From contig LT649269.1 of assembly GCA_900128395.1 (NCBI GenBank), positions 1 through 50,325 on the forward strand: DNA of 50,325 nucleotides, written 5' to 3'. Of the stretch, positions 846 to 11,972 are shown one piece after another (position 1 is the first letter of the stretch; every line of letters starts with the position of its first letter). The notes below the pieces were generated by a model. That model was not told where the DNA came from. It ran no database searches and worked only from the letters and a program-made list of their open reading frames with translations. Source of the stretch: Stramenopiles sp. TOSAG23-2 (Eukaryota). Both the position numbers and the translations under genes were made by a program.

Positions 846-2747
846 TTAACTTTCATCCATCATCTTTCGATTCCTTCTACCATTGCCTTTATCATCGTTA
901 TTATCTCTTCTACCTTTTCCTCCCTTTTCAGCAGTTGTTGGACGGCTATTATCTTTTTGTGCAGCTGGTTGTTGTGTTCTTTGCCTATCTGGGCTCAATG
1001 TTGCACCACGTAACAATAAATGTTCTTGGTTTCTTGGTGTTGATGGTCTTACACGTACATTATGCTTATTATTTGCTATTAACTCATCCATAATATTATT
1101 TAAATCTGTCTTTGGTTGCATTTCCGCTGCACCTTCTTCACCACCTTGTGGTCTACGGTGGCCAGCTTCAGCACCTTCGTCTAAAACTTCCATTAAACGC
1201 GTCAATCGATTTTCAATAGATTGAATCTCACGAACAGTTGCTTCAATACCACTGTTGCCATTAGCATTCATTGTATCTGATGCTTTACCACCACCACCTT
1301 CATTGCCTTGTGGTTTGCTGCGCGAGCCACTTCTTCCACCGCCACTATTGTGTGTTGGGGATACCGGCGTTTCAACGTCAATATGTACTAATTTCTGTGC
1401 CATGACACTTATACTTTGTCGAATTTCCAAAATGATTTTCTCCACCCGTTCATGTTCCTCTCTAACAACTTTTAAGCGTCTAACAAATTCATCTTGTGAT
1501 TTGGATAATTTATCAATCATATCACGATTAAAATCAGTTGCACCTGTACCAGAAAATTTAACTGCTTCCATTTTACGTAAAAGTTCAGATTTACGGTTGC
1601 GCAATTGCTCCGTTTTTAAACGTTTTTTGTCGATTTCATTTTGCATCTCAATGCCATAATGCTCGCGTTGGTTCAATCGTTCTACGATGTCATCAACACT
1701 TGATAAGCCAGTTGCTAAACGTATTTCTTGGAATGTTTTTTGATAAAATTCTAATTTATCTTTTATTTGATCCAGCGTCATATTATTTGTCCTTGCTGCT
1801 ATTGCGCTATTACTTTTTTTATTGCGGTCATGCTCTTTCTGCTCCCGTTTCGATTCCTCCAATGCAGCCTGTCGTTCCCTTCGTTTTTTCTCTTCCAAAT
1901 TGACTTTTTGCTCTTCTCGTTTCCGTGCAACTTGCCTTCTATCTTCCAATTGATTTTCCCAACGGACTTTTTCTTGATTTACTAAATGTTTTGAACGTGC
2001 TAATTCTCTTTCCTCTCGTGCTTTTGCCATGCGTACTTCTACTGCCATGGCACGAACTTCGCCAGCTTCCTCCCGCCTTACTGTTAACGCTTCTTCGTAC
2101 GCACGCAATGTATTGTCATAGGTCAAACGTTCTTCTTTTAAACGATTGCACATATATAATAAAGTACGACGATATGCTAGTGTATCACCTAACTGTTTTT
2201 TTGCACTTTCTAACTCATTTCTTTGTGTATTAATAAGTTCCATACCTTTTCGCCTATTTTCCTCCACATCATCTTCTCGTTTCAAGTTAACAAGTCGATC
2301 CCGCAACGTTTGTAAATCTTTATGCATTTTACGATGCGCTTCTCTTAATGAATTATATACATCACGGGATTGTCTAACTTCCAACTGTAAGATATGTACC
2401 CTATCAACATATTTATCTCCTGAGCTTTCTTCACCCTCTAAATGTGGCTCCTTTGTTTCTTTCTTTTTTGTTGAGCCACCTATACCACTGCCAAGGCCAG
2501 TCGTAGATTGGGAGCCACGTTGATTTTTACTAAGCTTTGATGATTTACCTAAAGCAGCAGTAGATTTAGACTTTACGATTTTTGGTAACGGTGAACTAGT
2601 TGGCCTTGTACCACCAATTTCTGTAAAATCAGGACGTCCAGGCCCAGGTTTCAATCCACTACGTCTAGCCCTTTGACGTTTCTTGACTTCCCTCGTCTCG
2701 GCTAAAATTTGTTGATCCAAACGTAACGGCGCAACTTCATCCGACAT
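846..2747 (-). CDS. Coiled-coil outer dynein arm docking-complex-like protein (CCDC151/ODA3-DC1-like)
   Basis: Long coiled coil with 'FQEIRLATGLSSVDDIVERL' and 'EAVKFSG', resembling ODA-DC family motifs. Start moved to ATG 2747 (MSDEV) because the upstream extension is TA/CA microsatellite. Confidence 0.6.
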   Translation of the reverse strand: MSDEVAPLRLDQQILAETREVKKRQRARRSGLKPGPGRPDFTEIGGTRPTSSPLPKIVKSKSTAALGKSSKLSKNQRGSQSTTGLGSGIGGSTKKKETKEPHLEGEESSGDKYVDRVHILQLEVRQSRDVYNSLREAHRKMHKDLQTLRDRLVNLKREDDVEENRRKGMELINTQRNELESAKKQLGDTLAYRRTLLYMCNRLKEERLTYDNTLRAYEEALTVRREEAGEVRAMAVEVRMAKAREERELARSKHLVNQEKVRWENQLEDRRQVARKREEQKVNLEEKKRRERQAALEESKREQKEHDRNKKSNSAIAARTNNMTLDQIKDKLEFYQKTFQEIRLATGLSSVDDIVERLNQREHYGIEMQNEIDKKRLKTEQLRNRKSELLRKMEAVKFSGTGATDFNRDMIDKLSKSQDEFVRRLKVVREEHERVEKIILEIRQSISVMAQKLVHIDVETPVSPTHNSGGGRSGSRSKPQGNEGGGGKASDTMNANGNSGIEATVREIQSIENRLTRLMEVLDEGAEAGHRRPQGGEEGAAEMQPKTDLNNIMDELIANNKHNVRVRPSTPRNQEHLLLRGATLSPDRQRTQQPAAQKDNSRPTTAEKGGKGRRDNNDDKGNGRRNRKMMDES

Positions 2748-3359
2748 GTTTTCACACACACACACACACAAAGATGTATAATACGATAACTTTTGTATAT
2801 ATAATATATATATATATATGTCATACGCGCAGGAACACGGATACACACTAAATCTATATATGAAATATTATTTATAATAAATAATATATTGCTTATTTTT
2901 TGGCAATGGTGTGTACCTGTTAACTAGATTAATAAATGCCGTTGTGTTTCTGTGTGAGTTTATTTTTTCATAACAGTCACATAAATATACATAGCACCTA
3001 TCAAATAAAACAACAAAACAAAATAACTTAAAAATAGGAAACATTTACATATAATATGACGTAATAGAATAAAATAATTAAGGTACATTATTTTAAATAT
3101 ACAATATAATTAAAACATGAAAACATACAATACTATATTACTAACTAGGAACGTATAGCTCTACTCTAAGAATGCATAAAAAATAATAGAAAGAGTGGGT
3201 GCTAGTTGTATGTTGTATACTTGTAAACCGAATTTACTAAGCGCTAGTTGTAGTGTAAGTATTAATAATCGCATTTACGGTGAGTGCGAATATATCCAAC
3301 AAATCAACAATATATACTCTACAATAACATATGATGTTCATAGTAAACTAATAAGACGA

Positions 3360-6188
3360 CTATAATCTCGTGTTCGCACTAACTGCACTACCAGACGCAC
3401 TATCCACGTCACTTAAAATAGTACCAGTAACATGATATGTATCTGCAGCTCTACAAATGAAATCCAAATTTGTCCCAGCTTTTCCAGGCTTAGTACCATC
3501 ACCAGCTTTTAAATATATAGCATTTGCACCTGATGCCATAACAACACCTTTTGTTTTATATGCTTGTGTATCTTCGGCTAGATATACAAAACCAGAAAAA
3601 ATGTCATTGAGCCCTCCAACGATGGTATATCCAGCGCTAGAACTTTCTAACAATATATGCAATTCAAAATTCCAACCTAATGACGATCCACTGCAATCAG
3701 GCAAAGTTAATGTAAATCCATCCGCTGAATTAAGCAAAACTTTCGAGCCAGAATCAGTTGATGTTAATGTAGTTTGAGCTGTCAGTACTTTCAAACCCCA
3801 ATAGGAGCTAGACAACCCATCCGAATGTCCAAACCGTATATTATCCATTATAACGTCGCCATTGGTTGATGTAAAGGTCAAATCATTGCCAGCAGCACCT
3901 GTATGCGTCATTGTTGTCGCACTTGTTGTAGTTAAAAGGATATCACCCCCAGAATTTGATATTCCGCCAGCAACTATATCAAAATTTCCTGTAACAGTAC
4001 TATCTTGAGCAGCGTGTATACCACCACCAGCAATCATGCTCCCATCACCTTTAACCGACAGTGCATCTGTACCACTCATGTTTTGGTACCAAAACTCAGT
4101 TGCCCCATCTGTTCCATGCGCGGCATAGGTCCAATTTATTGCATTGAAGGTAGTGATAAAGTGCATAAATTCGAATGTATTAGCACTGGCAACGGTAGTG
4201 GTCATTTTTAATAGAGACCCTGTAAATGAACTACTAGCTGTTTGTGTAACAATCATGGCGTTTCCATCAGTGACCGCCAGTCCACTTGTAAAATTGGTAT
4301 TGATTTTAGCATTGAAATATACCAATGGAGTTCCACTTCTTTGTGTTTGATCAATACTATAATCATGTGCCGACAATGGCATTGTTTGGGTTGATGCTTT
4401 TAATGTCGGAAAAACAGTTTTTAAACTGGTGGACATTGTTAATGCAAATGCACCACCAACGTATAACTTTTTTCCTACTGCTAATCCACCAGCTGCAATC
4501 ATCGATCCAGTCAGCTTGTTAGTAGCAGCTGTAGTTATTTTTGAAACCAACGTGCCGACATACAATTTTTTTCCAATTCCAAATCCACCCGTATGCGTTA
4601 ATGTTCCCGTTGTTACACCTGTGCTTTGAACTGTTGAATATAATGCCAACTCTCCAGCCCCAGTCAGTCTGAAGAGTGATGCACCGTTTGCACTTCCCTG
4701 TATCACATTGTAAGCAGCTTCAGTTCCAGTCCCAAGCGTTTCTATTAAGCTGGTATCGTATGTATTGCCAAGGCTATTATATAAACGAACTATCGCGGTA
4801 TTAGACGTCGGTGCATCTAAGGTAATGTGAGATGTCACATTTATTGAATTTCGCAGTCTAGTATCACGCATCGCTGCTAACGTTATATTTCCCGTGCTTG
4901 ACTTCATTCCCCCCAATGCAACTGTTGCCACTCCATCCCCTCGTATATCAACACATTTTTTCGTCCCATGCAATACCGAGAAAAAGCTAAAGTCACTCTC
5001 CTTTTGTTTCTTCGTCTCCAATATCAAAGCGTCTCCTGTATACGATGTATGTGTGAAACTTACAGCTTTCCCTGTAGCATTCTGTACCTCAAGAGCATAG
5101 ATATGATTAAACCTATCACAGTTATGGCCGAAAAATTCATCAGCACAAGTGCATTCCCCAGTTGTAAAATCACATGTACCACGGGCAGAACATATATCAT
5201 TTCTGTAAGTCCCAGTTTGAACATCTGCCCAAACACATGTTGGATCAGTTGCACCAGCATTGTACACTTGACAATGAAATAAATTTATATCCGGTACCCC
5301 ATCATGGTTATATATATTATTTTCCTGTGGTTTTGTTGGCCATGATGTAAACGTAATAGAATATACTGCCCCATTGGTGTTTGTGTCAACCGTGCCTCTT
5401 GTAACATCAACAGTTTTTATATTGCCTAATGCTTCTAGTTCGGTCTTTAAAACACTTGCCGTCGCTGTGTTTGCATTTGAATCTAGGAGAAAATAATGGC
5501 CATAAAATCCTATTCTAAAAGTTCCCGTTAACGCACCACTAGCTGCTCCAGTGGTTAGTTTCACAATATGGTAAACAGTCTCGTTTGTCGCAGGATCATG
5601 CCCCCTTGGACAATTTATTATACTACAATCTGGGCCTAGAAAATTCCAATCGCATATACAACCGTGTGTAAATGGTCCATCCCATAATGAATATAACATA
5701 CCTGTCCCGTCACCATCTGGATCAAATCCTTCTTGTTTTGAAAAATCATTCATGCTGATGCATCGGCCTTTACTATTACAATCAAAATCGCTCACGGTTG
5801 GACACACATTCATTTCGCAAGCGGTTCCTTTGAATCCTTCCATGCATTCGCATAAACCACCAGCACCGCACTTACCAACTCCAGAACATACTACTTCAGT
5901 ATCGTGTGGTGCAGAAATAGTTCGAGTTTTTGAGAAAAAATAAGGACCTTTTGGACAATCACGTTCTGAACAGTCAGGTGCACGACGAAATCCTGTCGGG
6001 CAATCGCAATGGTAACCATTGTGTGCAGTTTCGTTATATCGACATATGCCGATACCACTGCATTCATTTGGACAATCATAAGGCATCCCTTCACTAGAAG
6101 TATGAAAAATATTTGCGTTAAACACAAATACAAAAATATATAAAACTGTTACATTCAGAAACTTACTACAGCCTTTTGTCATTGTCAT
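3360..6188 (-). CDS. Secreted mastigoneme-like (Sig1/Ocm-type) tenascin-EGF protein with Gly/Thr-rich fibre-like C-terminal half
   Basis: Signal peptide; CPNECSGxGxC, DCSERDCPKG, YxxWD..GCICDW and CPRGHDP motifs; paralog of 7093-9984. Likely start MTMTKG at 6188. Confidence 0.75.
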   Translation of the reverse strand: MTMTKGCSKFLNVTVLYIFVFVFNANIFHTSSEGMPYDCPNECSGIGICRYNETAHNGYHCDCPTGFRRAPDCSERDCPKGPYFFSKTRTISAPHDTEVVCSGVGKCGAGGLCECMEGFKGTACEMNVCPTVSDFDCNSKGRCISMNDFSKQEGFDPDGDGTGMLYSLWDGPFTHGCICDWNFLGPDCSIINCPRGHDPATNETVYHIVKLTTGAASGALTGTFRIGFYGHYFLLDSNANTATASVLKTELEALGNIKTVDVTRGTVDTNTNGAVYSITFTSWPTKPQENNIYNHDGVPDINLFHCQVYNAGATDPTCVWADVQTGTYRNDICSARGTCDFTTGECTCADEFFGHNCDRFNHIYALEVQNATGKAVSFTHTSYTGDALILETKKQKESDFSFFSVLHGTKKCVDIRGDGVATVALGGMKSSTGNITLAAMRDTRLRNSINVTSHITLDAPTSNTAIVRLYNSLGNTYDTSLIETLGTGTEAAYNVIQGSANGASLFRLTGAGELALYSTVQSTGVTTGTLTHTGGFGIGKKLYVGTLVSKITTAATNKLTGSMIAAGGLAVGKKLYVGGAFALTMSTSLKTVFPTLKASTQTMPLSAHDYSIDQTQRSGTPLVYFNAKINTNFTSGLAVTDGNAMIVTQTASSSFTGSLLKMTTTVASANTFEFMHFITTFNAINWTYAAHGTDGATEFWYQNMSGTDALSVKGDGSMIAGGGIHAAQDSTVTGNFDIVAGGISNSGGDILLTTTSATTMTHTGAAGNDLTFTSTNGDVIMDNIRFGHSDGLSSSYWGLKVLTAQTTLTSTDSGSKVLLNSADGFTLTLPDCSGSSLGWNFELHILLESSSAGYTIVGGLNDIFSGFVYLAEDTQAYKTKGVVMASGANAIYLKAGDGTKPGKAGTNLDFICRAADTYHVTGTILSDVDSASGSAVSANTRL

Positions 6189-6921
6189 AGTACTAACAGT
6201 AAAAATATTATATATATACATATATATATATTATTATTAAAAAAGAGAGAGGTCCAATATTTTAGTTACTTCTTACAAGCATTATTATATCAACGGAGTG
6301 TGTTTAAATGTAGTAGATGTACTATGTTGATTAGACTATGAAAAAAAATTTCTTCACACGTCGAAAAATAAATTTTACATTAAATGTATTATTATTTATA
6401 ATATATAATAATATAATACGCCACCAAAAAAAAAAAAACAACATCATAATAATATGATGTGTGTCGAGGTGTTTGATGATGGAATATGTATGCTGGTAGT
6501 ATGCTGGTATATTAATAATAGTAAGGCTTTAATGTAGTTTGTATTTGTTACTTTTTGCATTTTATACTACGATATCTGGTAGTTAAATATACAACCTACA
6601 ACCTATTAAGAAATTGTATTAATATAGCATTCCACAGCATTCCAGCTTACAGCATTTTAATTTGTAGCAGTTAAAAACTTGAGCAGCGATTCCTTCAACG
6701 TGATTGGATTATGAAAACTGACATGCTGACAGCAATAGAGCCTCTTGTATTTTTTGATGAGGAATATTAATAAATGGGTGCAATGCTGGCCCGGCTGGCC
6801 TGGAATAAATAACAGGAAAAAAATATCATCAGATAGAAGAAGAATATTATTAATACCACCAACGCCTAATAAATCATATATAAGTAAATATAAATATACA
6901 CATAAATATACAGAGAACCGT

Positions 6922-6954
<33 letters not shown>

Positions 6955-7092
6955 GATCAAACTGTTCGAAGATTTACCCGTGTGTATTAGTTTTACTTAC
7001 CTAACAATTAATGGTTGCCATTACTGCGCTTTCTTGTCAGAAAATATTGATGTGTCAAGAACTTCAAAAATAATTAGATTTACGATTAGAGA

Positions 7093-9984
7093 ATGTCAGG
7101 TTTAAACGTTTTTGTGTCGTCATTTTTTTATATAGTACTATTGTTAGTGGCATATTTTGTATTACCGTCATCTTCACATTGCCCAAACCTGTGCAGTGGC
7201 CATGGAAGTTGTAATGCAACTGACAGTTGCACTTGTTACGAAGGTTGGGATGGAGCAAGGGACTGCTCCCTTCGCGATTGCAAAAGAGGTATAGCATTAT
7301 TTTCGGCTGGTACACATACAACAACTGATAATAATATGGCAGAGTGTTCCAATGCAGGAATTTGCGATAGGTTTACTGGTTTTTGTGTTTGCAAAATTGG
7401 ATTTGTTGGTCCGACTTGTGAAAGGCTAACATGTCCTCCATATTCAGAGGAAGGGGAAGAAAGTGTCGACAATATATGCAATGGCCACGGTACCTGCACA
7501 AGCATTTACGATGCTGGAACTAGGCATGGAGCAGATACAACGGATGGGACAATAGGTGATGGACTTGGACCAGCATACACTGGTTGGGACAAAGACTTTA
7601 TTCACGGCTGTGTTTGTGAATGGGGTTGGGGTGGAAATGATTGTACTTATAGGCTATGTCCGAAGGGTGATGATCCGTTGACGACAGGAACCAATTTGGT
7701 ATTTACGATCACTACCAATGTTGCATCTGGGTCATTGGCCGGATTATGGACTTTAAAATTTGTTGGTCATGAGACAACATTCGAGGCTGACGGTAGTGCA
7801 TTGGCAGATGCAGCTTGTGCAAATGCGATAATGGCGTTGTTGAATGTTGAAACGGCAACTTGTGTCGTTTCTAATGTTGATGGTACCACAAAGGCAGCAA
7901 CAATGACGGTAACAATTACAAAATATCCTGAGCTGGTATTTGAAAATAATATATATAGCCATACTGGCTCACCTGCATTGTCTCAAATATCATGCACAGG
8001 TGGTTTAATAACGTCATCGCCGACAACACCCAGTTGTACCATAGCAATTACTACTGCCGCGACAAATGAATATGCAACTTGTTCAAATAGAGGTGTATGT
8101 GATTTTGCAACAGGGTTGTGCACATGTGGTACAAACTATTATGGCTCTTCATGTGATACACGTGGAACAACGCAGGAAGTTGATGATGCCGCCGCAGCTT
8201 TAATAGTGTCGTCAACAGGTGATTCGTACACAGGTAATGTGATGGAACTTTCTACTACTAGATCGGCTTCATCAGATTTTAATTTTTTAAAAGCAACTGC
8301 TTCTGGAGCAACTGTTTTTAGCATCCAAGGAGATGGTCTGGTCAAAATGACAAATGGTTTAAACATTGAAAAGGGTGGTATAACGCTTGAATCAGGTGGA
8401 ATTACATTAAATGATGGTGTGATAGAAGTTTATGATGATTCAAATAATGCCCTGTTGAAAGCAGGCGCGATAAGCGCTGCTTATACCGGAAACATTTTGC
8501 AATTGGATACAAATAGTGGTAGTTCAACTAATTGGAATTTCTTGAAGTTTAGTAGTGATTTTGTAAACACTGGTGGAACGCAGCAATTTAAAGTCGATGG
8601 CACAGGTCAAGTTTTTATAACGAGTACAGTAGATAGTACCAGTACAACAACTGGGTCATTTCAAACGACTGGTGGAGCTGGTATTGCAAAAACATTATAT
8701 GTCGGAGAAGGTGTTGTTTCATTAGATACTACTACATCGACATCAACAACCACTGGTTCTGTCATTGTTGCTGGCGGCCTTGGTGTAGCAGGTAATTTTT
8801 ACACTGGCGGTGGCATTGTTGTTGAAGATGGTGGTGCGTATTTTGCCAACAGCGCTACTGGGGACGTCGATGTTGTTACATTAACGCAGACTGATAGTGA
8901 TGGATTTACAGGATCTGTTTTGCGATTAGAGGCAACACAAGGATCTGCTACTACATATAATTTAATGGAAGCCTATAGTTCCATAGCCGGTACCCCTGCC
9001 GAAGTCTTTACCATCAGAGGTGATGGGAAAATTACAATTACAGGTGCCTTGTCCGTAACTTCCGGAGGTTTAAATATTACTGCTGGTGGCTTATCAGCCA
9101 CGGGAAACATCGCTTTTGCAGGGGGTGGTATTACAATGTCATCAACAAGTGCACAAGCAATTACTCATACAGGGGCGAATGGTGCTGATTTGACTGTGTC
9201 ATCCACCAATGGTGATGTCTACGTTGAATCAGTTAAAATTAGTGGACATATGATGACGGGCCATCATTATGAAGTTGAAACCATAGGCGTAGATAGGACA
9301 CTTGTAAATAGCGATTCCGGGAAGCGATTTTATCTGAATAATGCTACAGGATTTATCGTTACTTTGCCTGAATGTACAACTAGCACTTTAGGTGCATTTT
9401 TTGAATTCGATGTTCTTGTAGATACGCAGGTAGGGCATTTTGTTCGTTGTTCGGGAACTGATACCATAATAGGTGGTGTACAAACTGTAACTCTGTCTGA
9501 TTCCTTCTACACTGCAGCTGTTGCTGGTGCTCAACAACTTGATTTTCGTGGGCATGGGTTGTGCAGTAACGTTTATGCAACACGGACATGTAAATTGTGG
9601 GCAACAGCAACTTATGGAAATGTAACTAATTGTGATGACAATCCTTGTTCTAATGGGGGAAGTACTTGTAGTGGACTTTTGGCTAACAATTTTGAAGAAA
9701 CATATACAGAGACGTGTACAATTGATCAACAACATTTTTGCTATTTATTAAATACAAAAGCGGCTTGTACTACCCAAGGGGAAGTTGCGGGTGCAAGTAC
9801 GTCAGATGACTTTAGAACAACACCTCAAGTATGGACCAATGGTCCCGGTGGAGACCCTGGGACACGCGTCATGTTAACATGTGTTGCTGATAAAGTATGG
9901 TATGTATCAGGTGTCGTGCTTACTGATGAAACGACATCAACTACGGAAGCTGCTGCATTTACAAGTACGGTTAGTAGACTTTGA
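7093..9984 (+). CDS. Secreted mastigoneme-like (Sig1/Ocm-type) tenascin-EGF protein with fibre-like C-terminal half
   Basis: Signal peptide; CPNLCSGHGSC, ECSNAGICDR, YTGWD..GCVCEW, CPKGDDPLT and CSNRGVCDF motifs typical of stramenopile flagellar-hair proteins. Confidence 0.8.
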   Translation: MSGLNVFVSSFFYIVLLLVAYFVLPSSSHCPNLCSGHGSCNATDSCTCYEGWDGARDCSLRDCKRGIALFSAGTHTTTDNNMAECSNAGICDRFTGFCVCKIGFVGPTCERLTCPPYSEEGEESVDNICNGHGTCTSIYDAGTRHGADTTDGTIGDGLGPAYTGWDKDFIHGCVCEWGWGGNDCTYRLCPKGDDPLTTGTNLVFTITTNVASGSLAGLWTLKFVGHETTFEADGSALADAACANAIMALLNVETATCVVSNVDGTTKAATMTVTITKYPELVFENNIYSHTGSPALSQISCTGGLITSSPTTPSCTIAITTAATNEYATCSNRGVCDFATGLCTCGTNYYGSSCDTRGTTQEVDDAAAALIVSSTGDSYTGNVMELSTTRSASSDFNFLKATASGATVFSIQGDGLVKMTNGLNIEKGGITLESGGITLNDGVIEVYDDSNNALLKAGAISAAYTGNILQLDTNSGSSTNWNFLKFSSDFVNTGGTQQFKVDGTGQVFITSTVDSTSTTTGSFQTTGGAGIAKTLYVGEGVVSLDTTTSTSTTTGSVIVAGGLGVAGNFYTGGGIVVEDGGAYFANSATGDVDVVTLTQTDSDGFTGSVLRLEATQGSATTYNLMEAYSSIAGTPAEVFTIRGDGKITITGALSVTSGGLNITAGGLSATGNIAFAGGGITMSSTSAQAITHTGANGADLTVSSTNGDVYVESVKISGHMMTGHHYEVETIGVDRTLVNSDSGKRFYLNNATGFIVTLPECTTSTLGAFFEFDVLVDTQVGHFVRCSGTDTIIGGVQTVTLSDSFYTAAVAGAQQLDFRGHGLCSNVYATRTCKLWATATYGNVTNCDDNPCSNGGSTCSGLLANNFEETYTETCTIDQQHFCYLLNTKAACTTQGEVAGASTSDDFRTTPQVWTNGPGGDPGTRVMLTCVADKVWYVSGVVLTDETTSTTEAAAFTSTVSRL

Positions 9985-10490: not shown

Positions 10491-11972
10491 ATGGTATATT
10501 TCAAAGTAATTGGAGCTGCAATATGTTTTGGGATATTCATATCTATTAATGGTATTTTTGGTATAGATATTCTTAAAGATCATGTATGGAACCAAGAGGT
10601 TTGCATCAAGACAAATAGTGGTGATTCATACTGCCAATTAGTTTATACTAGTGCAAAAAATCTAAGTGAAAGCGTACTAGATGCAAAGATCAATTTTTGT
10701 AAGCAAATAGAACATTCAAATATCGAAACGTGTTGTAATAATAAACTTTGTATTTCTAAAATGTTGACTTCTTTTGAAAATAAACTTCGCTATGGCATGA
10801 GAATTTTTGATCCACTTGCAGAATTAAATAGACGTCGCCAAGAGAACGATCTTTTGGTGGCATATATTGATGAAATTGTAGCAGCAAATGTTAATAATAA
10901 AATTGTTGATACGCATAAAATGATTTTTGTACAGGTTGGTGCGAATGTTGGCGCCACAATAAACGATCCGATATTCCCAATAATTACAAAAATGCCAAAT
11001 TTAAACTCATACGGTTTGTTATTTGAACCTAGTGTTTTTCATTACAAAGGTTTAAAATATAATTACAACGAATATAAAGATCGTGTTCAGATGATTAACA
11101 AAGCATTTTGCGAAACAGAGGGTCAAAGTACATTTTTGCATGCAAAGTTACCAGACGGTGATCCTGGTGTTGAAAAATCCCATACTGAGTTTAGTCCAAT
11201 TTTTGATTTCATGTATCGTACACATAAATCACAAATGTCCATCTTATCGAATGAAAAGAACTATCAAAAACTTACACGAACTGTGAAAGCTCCACATGTA
11301 GCAGCTTTTGATTGTATCAATTCCTTAGAAACGTATTTGAAACCCATCTATAATACTTGCAGTGCCTCTTCAATGTCTGCTCATGATATCGTTTTTGCAA
11401 TAGATGCAGAAGGTACTGATATAATTGTCTTAAGATATATTTTTAGTGAAAGGTATTATTCGATTTTCCCGCTTCCCCGAGTTATAGTATTTGAATTTGC
11501 ATTTATGCGCGGAAATGAATTAGCTGAAATCTTTCATGTGTTAGATTTGCATGGGTATATCTGTGATTTGTATACTTCTATGGATATTATTTGTACTATT
11601 CCTAAACAATGCAGACCAAATTATTACGTTGGACCTGCGTGTTGCAAATTAAACTCATTATGTTCAAAACTTTGTGGATTGAATACAAAATCCAATGGTG
11701 AAGAATCATGTAATGCTTTTAATGTTTTTGACAATAATCCAAGTACTGAGAAATCGTATGAAGATCCAAGCCTGGTAGGTGGCATTTTTGGCGAAGATTT
11801 TAAAATACATCATCCCAAAAATACAGCTGTGTTGATATGTGCAAAATTTTATGGAAAAGTTGATGCATGTAAAGACCGCATAATTCCCCATATAACAGGC
11901 TTATGGTTGCGGAATCATAGTGGTTTTAAAGTCATAACTGATAAGGGATTCTTCCGAATTCGTACATTATAA
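10491..11972 (+). CDS. FkbM-family SAM-dependent methyltransferase with N-terminal signal/anchor
   Basis: FVQVGANVG..DPIFP, LLFEP, IDAEGTD and VIVFE motifs; hydrophobic N-terminus. Confidence 0.7.
   Translation: MVYFKVIGAAICFGIFISINGIFGIDILKDHVWNQEVCIKTNSGDSYCQLVYTSAKNLSESVLDAKINFCKQIEHSNIETCCNNKLCISKMLTSFENKLRYGMRIFDPLAELNRRRQENDLLVAYIDEIVAANVNNKIVDTHKMIFVQVGANVGATINDPIFPIITKMPNLNSYGLLFEPSVFHYKGLKYNYNEYKDRVQMINKAFCETEGQSTFLHAKLPDGDPGVEKSHTEFSPIFDFMYRTHKSQMSILSNEKNYQKLTRTVKAPHVAAFDCINSLETYLKPIYNTCSASSMSAHDIVFAIDAEGTDIIVLRYIFSERYYSIFPLPRVIVFEFAFMRGNELAEIFHVLDLHGYICDLYTSMDIICTIPKQCRPNYYVGPACCKLNSLCSKLCGLNTKSNGEESCNAFNVFDNNPSTEKSYEDPSLVGGIFGEDFKIHHPKNTAVLICAKFYGKVDACKDRIIPHITGLWLRNHSGFKVITDKGFFRIRTL

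Follow-up and report, generated by a model that had tools for sequence, protein, structure and literature searches.

Two adjacent stramenopile genes predicted to encode secreted mosaics of a mastigoneme module, stramenopile-specific fibre modules and phage-related parts

Tripartite tubular hairs define the stramenopiles and reverse flagellar thrust. The proteins of the hair shaft are known and the structure of the shaft has been solved (PDB 9ufe). The accessible text of PMC9310263 states that the role of the terminal filament is unclear, and the accessible part of 10.64898/2026.09.11.750887 gives the known Phytophthora hair proteins, PnMas1-3, three EGF-like domains each and names no terminal-filament protein. 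No proteins of the fine lateral and terminal filaments are named in the literature that we searched, which did not cover the original 9ufe, Ocm and PnMas papers. Two neighbouring genes, P0001 and P0002, in a 50,325-nucleotide stretch from Stramenopiles sp. TOSAG23-2 (GenBank assembly GCA_900128395.1, contig LT649269.1, positions 1 to 50,325; hereafter the window) raise the question of whether the module of the hair shaft has been joined to a phage-like fibre and what such a protein would do. A prediction made from the nucleotide sequence alone had read both products as mastigoneme-type EGF proteins carrying a virus-like trimeric fibre, possibly in terminal or lateral filaments of the hairs or as a prey-binding device. 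Judged from sequence comparisons, the two proteins are fast-evolving mosaics, predicted to be secreted, in which a hair-shaft module is followed by stramenopile-specific fibre modules and two phage-related parts. With somewhat more confidence than doubt, we propose that they are structural proteins of the tubular mastigoneme system that form a short filament projecting from the hair shaft.

Each gene consists of one uninterrupted open reading frame (ORF), and the two are arranged head to head (Table 1). Both ORFs lie exactly at the coordinates given in the original prediction, and all the motifs that it quoted are present in the translations. The mastigoneme motif LCPKGDDP of P0002 has the counterpart CPRGHDP in P0001; the YxxWD..CxCD/EW motif reads YTGWDKDFIHGCVCEWGW in P0002 and YSLWDGPFTHGCICDWNF in P0001; the beta-type repeats are STSTTTGSFQTTGGAGIAKTLYVG and TTGSVIVAGGLGVAGNFYTGG in P0002 and TGSMIAAGGLAVGKKLYVGG in P0001; and the TLxxxDSG-type terminal motif is represented by TLVNSDSGKRFYLNNATGFIVTLPECTTSTLGAFFEF in P0002 and TLTSTDSGSKVLLNSADGFTLTLPDCSGSSLGWNFEL in P0001. 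The proteins are paralogs (32% identity over 890 aligned positions, E 4e-100), and a database search recovered full-length orthologs with 55-97% identity to P0002 and 62-100% to P0001. The likely start of P0001 is its second methionine codon, at position 6188, which gives a protein of 942 amino acids (aa), the length of the 100%-identical database protein P0058. Both paralogs, again arranged head to head, are found on L002, a related contig of 10.8 kb. The intergenic sequences of the window and L002 do not align, and no shared promoter motif was seen when these two regions were compared; the proteins are probably made together, from genes transcribed divergently out of one intergenic region. 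With its full-length orthologs, its low ratios of non-synonymous to synonymous substitution (dN/dS, given below) and its matches to mastigoneme proteins in the PDB, the gene pair and its motifs are well beyond chance. As for the extreme C-termini, P0002 ends in -SRL (window positions 9976..9984), as does the 98%-identical copy in locus L004, and P0001 in -TRL. A peroxisomal targeting role of -SRL was considered for P0002 and rejected, as more distant orthologs end differently and the N-terminus is of the secretory type.

The N-terminal halves point to the hair shaft. In a PDB sequence search, residues 16-359 of P0002 aligned with residues 6-364 of the 366-residue chain 9ufe_BA (344 residues, E 8.7e-30); the six best matches of this protein, the sole ones below E 0.1, were 9ufe chains, and so were all six matches of P0001 (E 2.9e-14 to 2.4e-8). 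The depositors named these chains 'Tubular mastigoneme protein', OCM3, OCM5 and OCM6; we take Ocm to stand for Ochromonas mastigoneme proteins. The only Pfam families in the N-halves were of the EGF type (EGF_Teneurin, EGF_2), with scores above the cut-offs, and the N-half holds 27-28 cysteines in both proteins. Because the alignment with 9ufe covers a whole chain and the PDB matches of P0001 agree, both N-halves can be read as complete single mastigoneme modules, and their assignment as mastigoneme-type EGF modules in the original prediction is borne out. Their hydrophobic N-termini suggest that both proteins are secreted. The tubular mastigoneme proteins (9ufe; Sig1, Ocm, PnMas) share with P0001 and P0002 the Cys/EGF pattern, the CPxGDDP and WD..C.C motifs and a non-EGF middle part, whereas the 9ufe chains, of 209-748 aa, contain one or two modules and nothing that matches the C-terminal half of the window proteins. 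Each of the six distinct mastigoneme sequences in 9ufe is present as exactly three chains; a three-fold symmetry of the shaft, if true for 9ufe, would suit a trimeric fibre.

Behind this module lies a C-half of ~590 residues, a mosaic of four kinds of part: 'YTG' modules, repeat units, a Gly-rich stretch and a terminal domain. The parts were mapped with hidden Markov models (HMMs) built from an alignment of orthologs, A1 (Nmast, mid1, rep and mid2). The YTG modules follow the pattern ..YTG.vl.L......s.FNFl.......vF.i.GDG.. and occur three times per protein, twice directly after the last EGF and once after the repeats, making up about half of the C-half. They were seen only in stramenopile mastigoneme-type proteins. 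A database-wide search gave 28 distant matches to the C-half (E 1.2e-38 to 8.8e-4), and the single one with YTG modules, P0009, itself starts with EGF. The C-half had no match at E <= 1 in a PDB sequence search, and a search of NCBIfam with seven proteins gave no match.

The first phage-related part is the pair of fibre repeat units, with the pattern STSTTTGs....GG.GIAK.LYVGG, present as two units in each window protein. Nearly all of the 28 distant matches aligned at these units, which occur in 27 of them. Families of the PHROG collection were matched at E <= 1e-5 by 23 of the 28 (eight of these proteins matching tail or tail-fibre families), phrog_697 'structural protein' by 19, and domains of the Peptidase_S74, tail Collar or Mtd_N type were present on five. 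One of the matches, P0031, is collinear with P0002 over 256 residues at 34% identity, and its N-terminal part matches a tail-fibre PHROG. Phage fibre proteins with the related pattern STSTTTGAL.V.GG.GIAK.LYVGG (phrog_697, phrog_3018), often with an S74 or Collar end, resemble the window proteins in the repeat itself; they differ in having 3-15 units and viral N- or C-terminal domains, whereas the two units of the window proteins sit among stramenopile-specific modules. The end of the Gly-rich stretch, TSAQAITHTGA..DLTVSSTNGDV, is found in many copies in one protein labelled Durusdinium trenchii, and the last unit of the stretch in P0001 resembles repeats of P0011. The two motif classes that the original prediction described as viral, the repeats and the terminal domain, or knob, do have phage relatives. 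The C-half is not phage-like throughout, as relatives of the YTG modules are confined to stramenopile mastigoneme-type proteins.

The second phage-related part is the terminal domain. In an AlphaFold2 (AF2) monomer model of P0001 residues 375-953, the predicted local distance difference test (pLDDT) reaches 75-90 at model residues ~434-565, that is, P0001 residues 808-939. The model was aligned structurally with 48,161 PDB representatives, and four phage structures led the results: the C-terminal domain of the Pa223 capsid spike (9ny6_C residues 196-294 of 294; Z 10.9, root-mean-square deviation (rmsd) 2.3 Å over 99 residues), residues 79-180 of the CBA120 tailspike TSP4 (7rej_A; Z 10.2, 2.3 Å over 96 residues), a chain of the KP1 baseplate (Z 9.3, 2.7 Å over 98 residues) and the Solidus tailspike (Z 9.0, 2.3 Å over 91 residues). 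The next matches scored only Z 6.8 and 6.4. Beta-helix proteins, adhesins and tailspikes also matched, at Z 3-4, but on the low-confidence part of the model, and these matches were left unused. A Foldseek search of predicted viral structures (BFVD) gave 139 matches at E <= 1e-3, the top one with E 1.1e-9 and a target template-modelling score (TM) of 0.72; the best were proteins of 137-178 residues from uncultured phages and from metagenomic bins labelled 'Marseillevirus' and 'Pithovirus'. The predicted fold is similar to that of phage capsid spike and tailspike domains, with which the window domain has only 13-15% identity. The original prediction is supported in that the terminal domain is phage-related, and needs amending in that the closest solved analogue is a capsid spike or a tailspike anchor domain, not a tail-fibre tip.

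Sequence comparison also argues for homology of the terminal domain with small phage head-module proteins. A phmmer search with the 164-aa domain gave 78 matches at E <= 1e-3 among 1.84 billion proteins. The eukaryotic family contributes six of these (P0060-P0065). A further match, P0094, is a fragment almost identical to the P0002 type, and P0081 is possibly a fragment as well. The remaining matches are mostly of 140-290 aa and share the motif TL..DSG....LN.A.G.T.TLP....G..Y.F.V ... NGTTTGG..GT ... W.V.G. When six eukaryotic domains were compared with 52 small proteins by hhalign, the two groups matched with 99.7% probability (E 1.3e-25, 92 columns). An HMM built from the 52 small non-eukaryotic proteins recognised residues 810-939 of P0001 (8.9e-35) and, in two pieces, residues 706-804 (1.9e-16) and 894-951 (3.9e-7) of P0002, and matched no other ORF of the window. 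The two pieces flank an insert with eight cysteines, which every P0002-type row of alignments A5 and A1 contains and which the P0001 type and the phage homologs lack. One of the six family members, P0064 (185 aa), has a first part of ~105 residues that is membrane-protein-like, whereas its last ~76 residues share 64% identity with the P0001 C-terminus; a misassembly or a chimeric gene call is the probable cause.

The small proteins have a recognisable phage context. Of those that match PHROGs, one also carries a head-decoration domain, and another is a fusion with virion-structural and tail-spike families. Relatives in IMG/VR were found for three of the four small homologs tested (P0070 had none); one IMG/VR contig with a small homolog also encodes a large terminase and a portal, and on another the small homolog lies between the major head protein and a head-tail adaptor and tail sheath. 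Rhizobium phage RHph_Y25 encodes its homolog immediately after the major head protein, and this homolog matches P0001 with E 2e-8 in a single-pair BLASTP comparison. The best PDB sequence match of the small-protein profile is again the Pa223 spike (E 0.0011). The Pa223 spike, TSP4 and the small head-module proteins share with the window domain the fold and the motif TL..DSG....L....G.T.TLP....G..F.F.; the window domain differs from them in ending a eukaryotic predicted secreted protein of 950 aa and in having two invariant cysteines. This phage head-spike beta-sandwich family is absent from Pfam and NCBIfam. A quick tree of the domain (78 rows, built without three fragmentary or chimeric rows and domains of <100 aa) placed nine eukaryotic rows (eight labelled ones and P0094) together, along with two long-branch rows, on one side of a branch with 89% support in the Shimodaira-Hasegawa-like approximate likelihood ratio test (SH-aLRT).

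The fusion of hair module and fibre is not confined to these two genes. A search with residues 325-520 of P0002, comprising the last EGF and the first YTG modules, returned 19 proteins at E <= 0.01: five orthologs, eight proteins of Aphanomyces euteiches (P0152-P0159), one each of Pythium brassicae (P0160), Triparma laevis (P0162) and Ochromonas danica (P0163, identified by its EukProt label), two unnamed ones and a weak match from Phytophthora kernoviae. With the exception of the Phytophthora protein, all 14 non-orthologs have a mastigoneme module followed by YTG modules, several being N-terminally truncated. Peptidase_S74 (PF13884) is present on eight of the 19 proteins, with none recorded for P0160 and P0162. 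The rep and terminal-domain HMMs had no match in the 14 non-orthologs, although visual inspection showed one repeat-like unit directly before the S74 domain of an Aphanomyces protein. The relatives ending in S74 (P0152-P0159, P0163, P0164 and locus L006) resemble the window proteins in that their last EGF is immediately followed by YTG modules (E 1.5e-65 to 1.1e-14 for residues 325-520). Most of them end in PF13884 and have many YTG or GGLTV repeats, whereas the window proteins have just three YTG modules, two phage-type units and the knob, and no S74.

Metagenomes extend this picture. Patterns of the N-module led to 79 loci, of which four (L001-L004) have the window-type architecture and four more (L006, L015, L016 and L027) have YTG-type modules after the N-module; the other 71 gave N-module matches only, and many of these contigs are short. 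The ORF at L006:3-4181 (+), of 1393 aa, has a mastigoneme module, one YTG module, ~780 aa of GGLTV repeats and a C-terminal Peptidase_S74 domain (E 1.8e-16, passing the Pfam cut-off). The same hair module thus also occurs with a phage-like fibre ending of another kind. About 35 of the loci (L041-L079, e.g. L050:371-3931) are metatranscriptome contigs of ~4 kb that encode proteins of ~1200 aa with mastigoneme-type EGFs at both ends and, between these, ~1000 residues without a match to Pfam or to the C-half modules. A quick tree was built from 32 N-modules; rows had to span 220 HMM positions or more, so that L027 and several short loci were dropped. All 13 fibre-bearing modules fell on one side of a branch with 98% SH-aLRT support, and the single- and double-module proteins on the opposite side. 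One unlabelled row on the fibre-bearing side is an ORF cut by the end of its contig. Because fibre-bearing N-modules form one branch across named stramenopiles, the fusion is old, with probably a single origin, in a subfamily common to oomycetes, a chrysophyte and a bolidophyte. The window clade is a variant of this subfamily, without S74 and with a beta-sandwich knob at its end. The fibre-bearing branch is apparently undescribed: within the limits given above, we found no description of fibre-type mastigoneme proteins in the literature searched, and no publication linking mastigoneme with endosialidase.

Could the phage-related parts simply be viral or bacterial DNA, from contamination or a recent insertion, or could the C-halves be non-functional remnants? 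Apart from the presence of phage-related modules, what we found contradicts this explanation. These modules lie in the same uninterrupted ORFs as the eukaryote-specific N-module. Elsewhere in the window the large ORFs belong to ordinary eukaryotic genes, for a TauE exporter, an ABC transporter, FANCL, the lipid-droplet hydrolase LIDHydrolase, a MutS homolog and the type III glutamine synthetase GSIII. The G+C content is 27-41%, and the ORFs are long and intron-free. In L002 the pair is syntenic together with a neighbour, a coiled-coil gene downstream of the P0001-type gene that is 88% identical between the two contigs; the P0001 ortholog itself has 64-66% identity. In the window this neighbour is the coiled-coil-like ORF at 846..2846 (-), which has 666 aa, is rich in Lys, Glu and Arg and has no Pfam match. 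Moreover, searches of IMG/VR and of the GenBank phages gave no close relative, and the proteins do not have the setting of virus-encoded virion parts.

Evolutionary rates bear on the same point. Comparing the window with L002 by the Nei-Gojobori method (NG86), we obtained dN/dS values of 0.13 for P0001, 0.10 for P0002 and 0.047 for the flanking coiled-coil gene, ratios that are rough because dS is saturated at 1.3-2.6. The corresponding dN values are 0.25, 0.16 and 0.072, so the fibre proteins change 2-3.5 times faster than the flanking gene. The terminal domains are fastest, with dN/dS of 0.26 in P0001 and 0.16 in P0002, against 0.07-0.12 in the other parts. Both genes are under purifying selection, with a faster-evolving tip. 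Together with ORF continuity, eukaryotic neighbours and synteny, these values leave viral insertion, contamination or decay hardly credible. For this region 24 sequencing runs are listed; 74% or more of the sampled words are present in 20 of them, and 12 of those 20 are polyA or cDNA seawater metatranscriptomes from six studies (word-index matches only). The original idea of a virus-like fibre on a mastigoneme base is partly right: its phage-like modules are real, but stramenopile-specific modules make up most of the fibre, and the fusion is old.

What would such a protein do? In the mechanism that we favour, the N-terminal Cys/EGF module of ~330 residues, the same module that builds the hair shaft, would fold after entry into the endoplasmic reticulum and would dock the protein into or onto the shaft lattice via the contacts used by shaft subunits. 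The ~590-residue C-half would project outward as a thin fibre of YTG modules, repeat units, the Gly-rich stretch and a distal knob, and the knob, as the outward-facing and fastest-evolving part, would be a likely contact surface for a ligand or for another component of the hair. The proteins would then form fine filaments on the hairs, either short lateral ones or the root of the terminal filament. Phage T4 fibre dimensions correspond to ~0.05 nm per residue; by this analogy a fibre of 590 residues would measure ~30 nm, a length that would fit short lateral filaments, or the root of the terminal one, better than a whole terminal filament. A trimeric fibre is probable, since relatives end in the Peptidase_S74 chaperone, a trimeric intramolecular chaperone in phage T5 pb1 according to the accessible text of PMC4690869. 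As reported by Bouck (1971), the lateral filaments of Ochromonas hairs come in two sizes and each hair has one to three terminal filaments; the shafts are assembled in the perinuclear cisterna, with lateral filaments added in the Golgi.

A number of results weigh against this proposal or against the phage relationship that goes with it. The terminal filament measures 0.3-0.4 µm in the accessible text of PMC9310263, so that by the same analogy the fibre would be ~10 times too short for a whole terminal filament unless polymerised. The AF2 monomer model has a mean pLDDT of 43, with 431 of 579 residues below 50. No localisation of any fibre-type subfamily member was found in the literature searched, and P0163, the Ochromonas relative, is not one of the six 9ufe sequences (its best match, E 2.4e-33, covers residues 14-148 only). 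On the viral side, no viral relatives were found for the YTG part, about half of the C-half, and a search of IMG/VR with the C-half gave no close relative. Searched against PHROGs, P0001 and P0002 gave a single match, with E 0.22, and none at E <= 0.1. With tblastn against 50,697 GenBank phage records, residues 495-725 of P0002 gave nothing at E <= 1e-3, the terminal domain nothing at E <= 0.01, and the small homolog P0088 gave nothing in GenBank phages either. Peptidase_S74 (PF13884) had no Pfam match in P0001 or P0002 at E <= 1. Only eight of the 78 terminal-domain matches have a PHROG match at E <= 1e-3. One match, P0072, labelled as a Bacteroidales protein of the type IX secretion system (T9SS), has 3587 aa and contains 11 partial copies of the N-terminal part of the domain, so that a bacterial surface protein, too, contains this family, in repeated form.

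That no localisation was found also leaves room for a different place in the cell. The proteins could be general cell-surface or extracellular adhesins away from the hairs, acting at the cell body, within the wall of a cyst or lorica, or when gametes recognise each other, with the EGF part as a secreted scaffold and the fibre and knob binding a ligand. We regard this as a serious though clearly less probable alternative. Rates 2-3.5 times those of the flanking gene, with the tip changing fastest, are as in recognition proteins, and Sig1, the founding family member, is described as sexually induced in diatoms in the accessible part of its literature. P0163 is also absent from the solved shaft, an observation that fits a position outside the shaft and, equally, absence from the hairs. 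The N-module, however, is more than a generic array of EGFs: its alignment with a mastigoneme chain runs over the whole length and takes in the non-EGF middle part, and PDB matches beyond mastigoneme chains all have E > 0.1. In addition, the named relatives all come from oomycetes, a chrysophyte and a bolidophyte, and these groups have hairy flagellate stages.

The structural matches of the knob suggest yet another arrangement, in which the proteins are assembly or end pieces of the hair, the N-module capping or starting the shaft and the beta-sandwich serving as a docking platform. Among the best solved matches, several come from regions that attach or anchor (the TSP4 segment and the KP1 baseplate chain) and not from receptor-binding tips, the matching domains of CBA120 TSP4 anchor other tailspikes, and two adjacent paralogs could serve two ends or two partners. 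Yet the best-scoring match lies in a capsid spike (9ny6_C), in its distal C-terminal domain, and the homologs in phages are small head-module proteins, some of them fused to a head-decoration domain. The terminal domain also changes faster than other parts of the protein, and an internal docking surface would not usually do so. We therefore consider this arrangement unlikely, and retain a filament projecting from the shaft as the preferred explanation.

A more ambitious version of the filament proposal would make this subfamily the very substance of the lateral or terminal filaments, assembled early in stramenopiles from phage or virus fibre modules (repeats, S74 and, in the window's marine clade, the capsid-spike knob), with the fast-evolving knob binding bacterial surfaces in a bacterivore-like lineage. 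We put it forward tentatively and think it improbable as a whole; if true, a eukaryotic grazer would carry a phage-derived receptor-binding device on its feeding flagellum. Short of that, the proteins offer a candidate family for the fine filaments, with named members in the culturable Ochromonas danica and Aphanomyces euteiches. They also suggest that domains typical of phage virions (fibre repeats, the S74 chaperone and the head-spike beta-sandwich) have long been in use in a eukaryotic extracellular organelle, which bears on virus-to-host gene flow and on the contact between grazer and prey. If the link to filaments fails, ordinary fast-evolving secreted mosaic proteins remain.

Table 1. 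Features of the P0001-P0002 gene pair in the window, with the evidence for each (KD, mean Kyte-Doolittle hydropathy)
Feature	Position	Strand	Evidence
P0001 gene, paralog 1	3360..6221	minus	uninterrupted 953-aa ORF and translation
P0001 hydrophobic signal-like segment (aa ~21-40)	6102..6161	minus	KD over 15 residues ~2.1 at aa 21-35
P0001 mastigoneme-type Cys/EGF module (aa 48-372)	5106..6080	minus	9ufe matches; EGF_Teneurin, EGF_2; Nmast HMM 1.9e-143
P0001 YTG modules 1-2 (aa 378-520)	4662..5090	minus	mid1 HMM 4.2e-43
P0001 pair of phage-type fibre repeat units (aa 521-599)	4425..4661	minus	rep HMM 1.9e-34
P0001-type insert (aa 600-643), absent from P0002 type	4293..4424	minus	alignment A1 columns ~640-695
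P0001 third YTG module and Gly-rich stretch, end TSATTMTHTGAAGNDLTFTSTNGDV (aa 644-798)	3828..4292	minus	mid2 HMM 2.2e-49
P0001 terminal beta-sandwich, predicted (aa 805-944)	3390..3809	minus	AF2, structure matches, small-protein HMM, hhalign 99.7%
Intergenic region between divergent genes, AT-rich, 871 bp	6222..7092	.	same head-to-head order in L002
P0002 gene, paralog 2	7093..9984	plus	uninterrupted 963-aa ORF; orthologs P0003-P0007 at 55-97% identity
P0002 hydrophobic signal-like segment (aa 1-27)	7093..7173	plus	KD ~2.6 at aa 6-25
P0002 mastigoneme-type Cys/EGF module (aa 28-358)	7174..8166	plus	9ufe_BA match; Pfam EGF families
P0002 YTG modules 1-2 (aa 361-502)	8173..8598	plus	mid1 HMM 3.8e-69
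P0002 pair of phage-type fibre repeat units (aa 503-582)	8599..8838	plus	rep HMM 6.7e-39
P0002 third YTG module and Gly-rich stretch (aa 583-718)	8839..9246	plus	mid2 HMM 6.1e-69
P0002 terminal beta-sandwich, predicted, insert-split (aa 723-952)	9259..9948	plus	small-protein HMM in two pieces; alignment A5
Cys-rich insert, 8 Cys, 89 residues (aa 805-893), in P0002 terminal domain	9505..9771	plus	alignments A5 and A1

Directly downstream of P0002, at window positions 10491..11972 (+), lies an ORF of 493 aa with a hydrophobic N-terminus, many cysteines and no Pfam match, which may encode another secreted protein.

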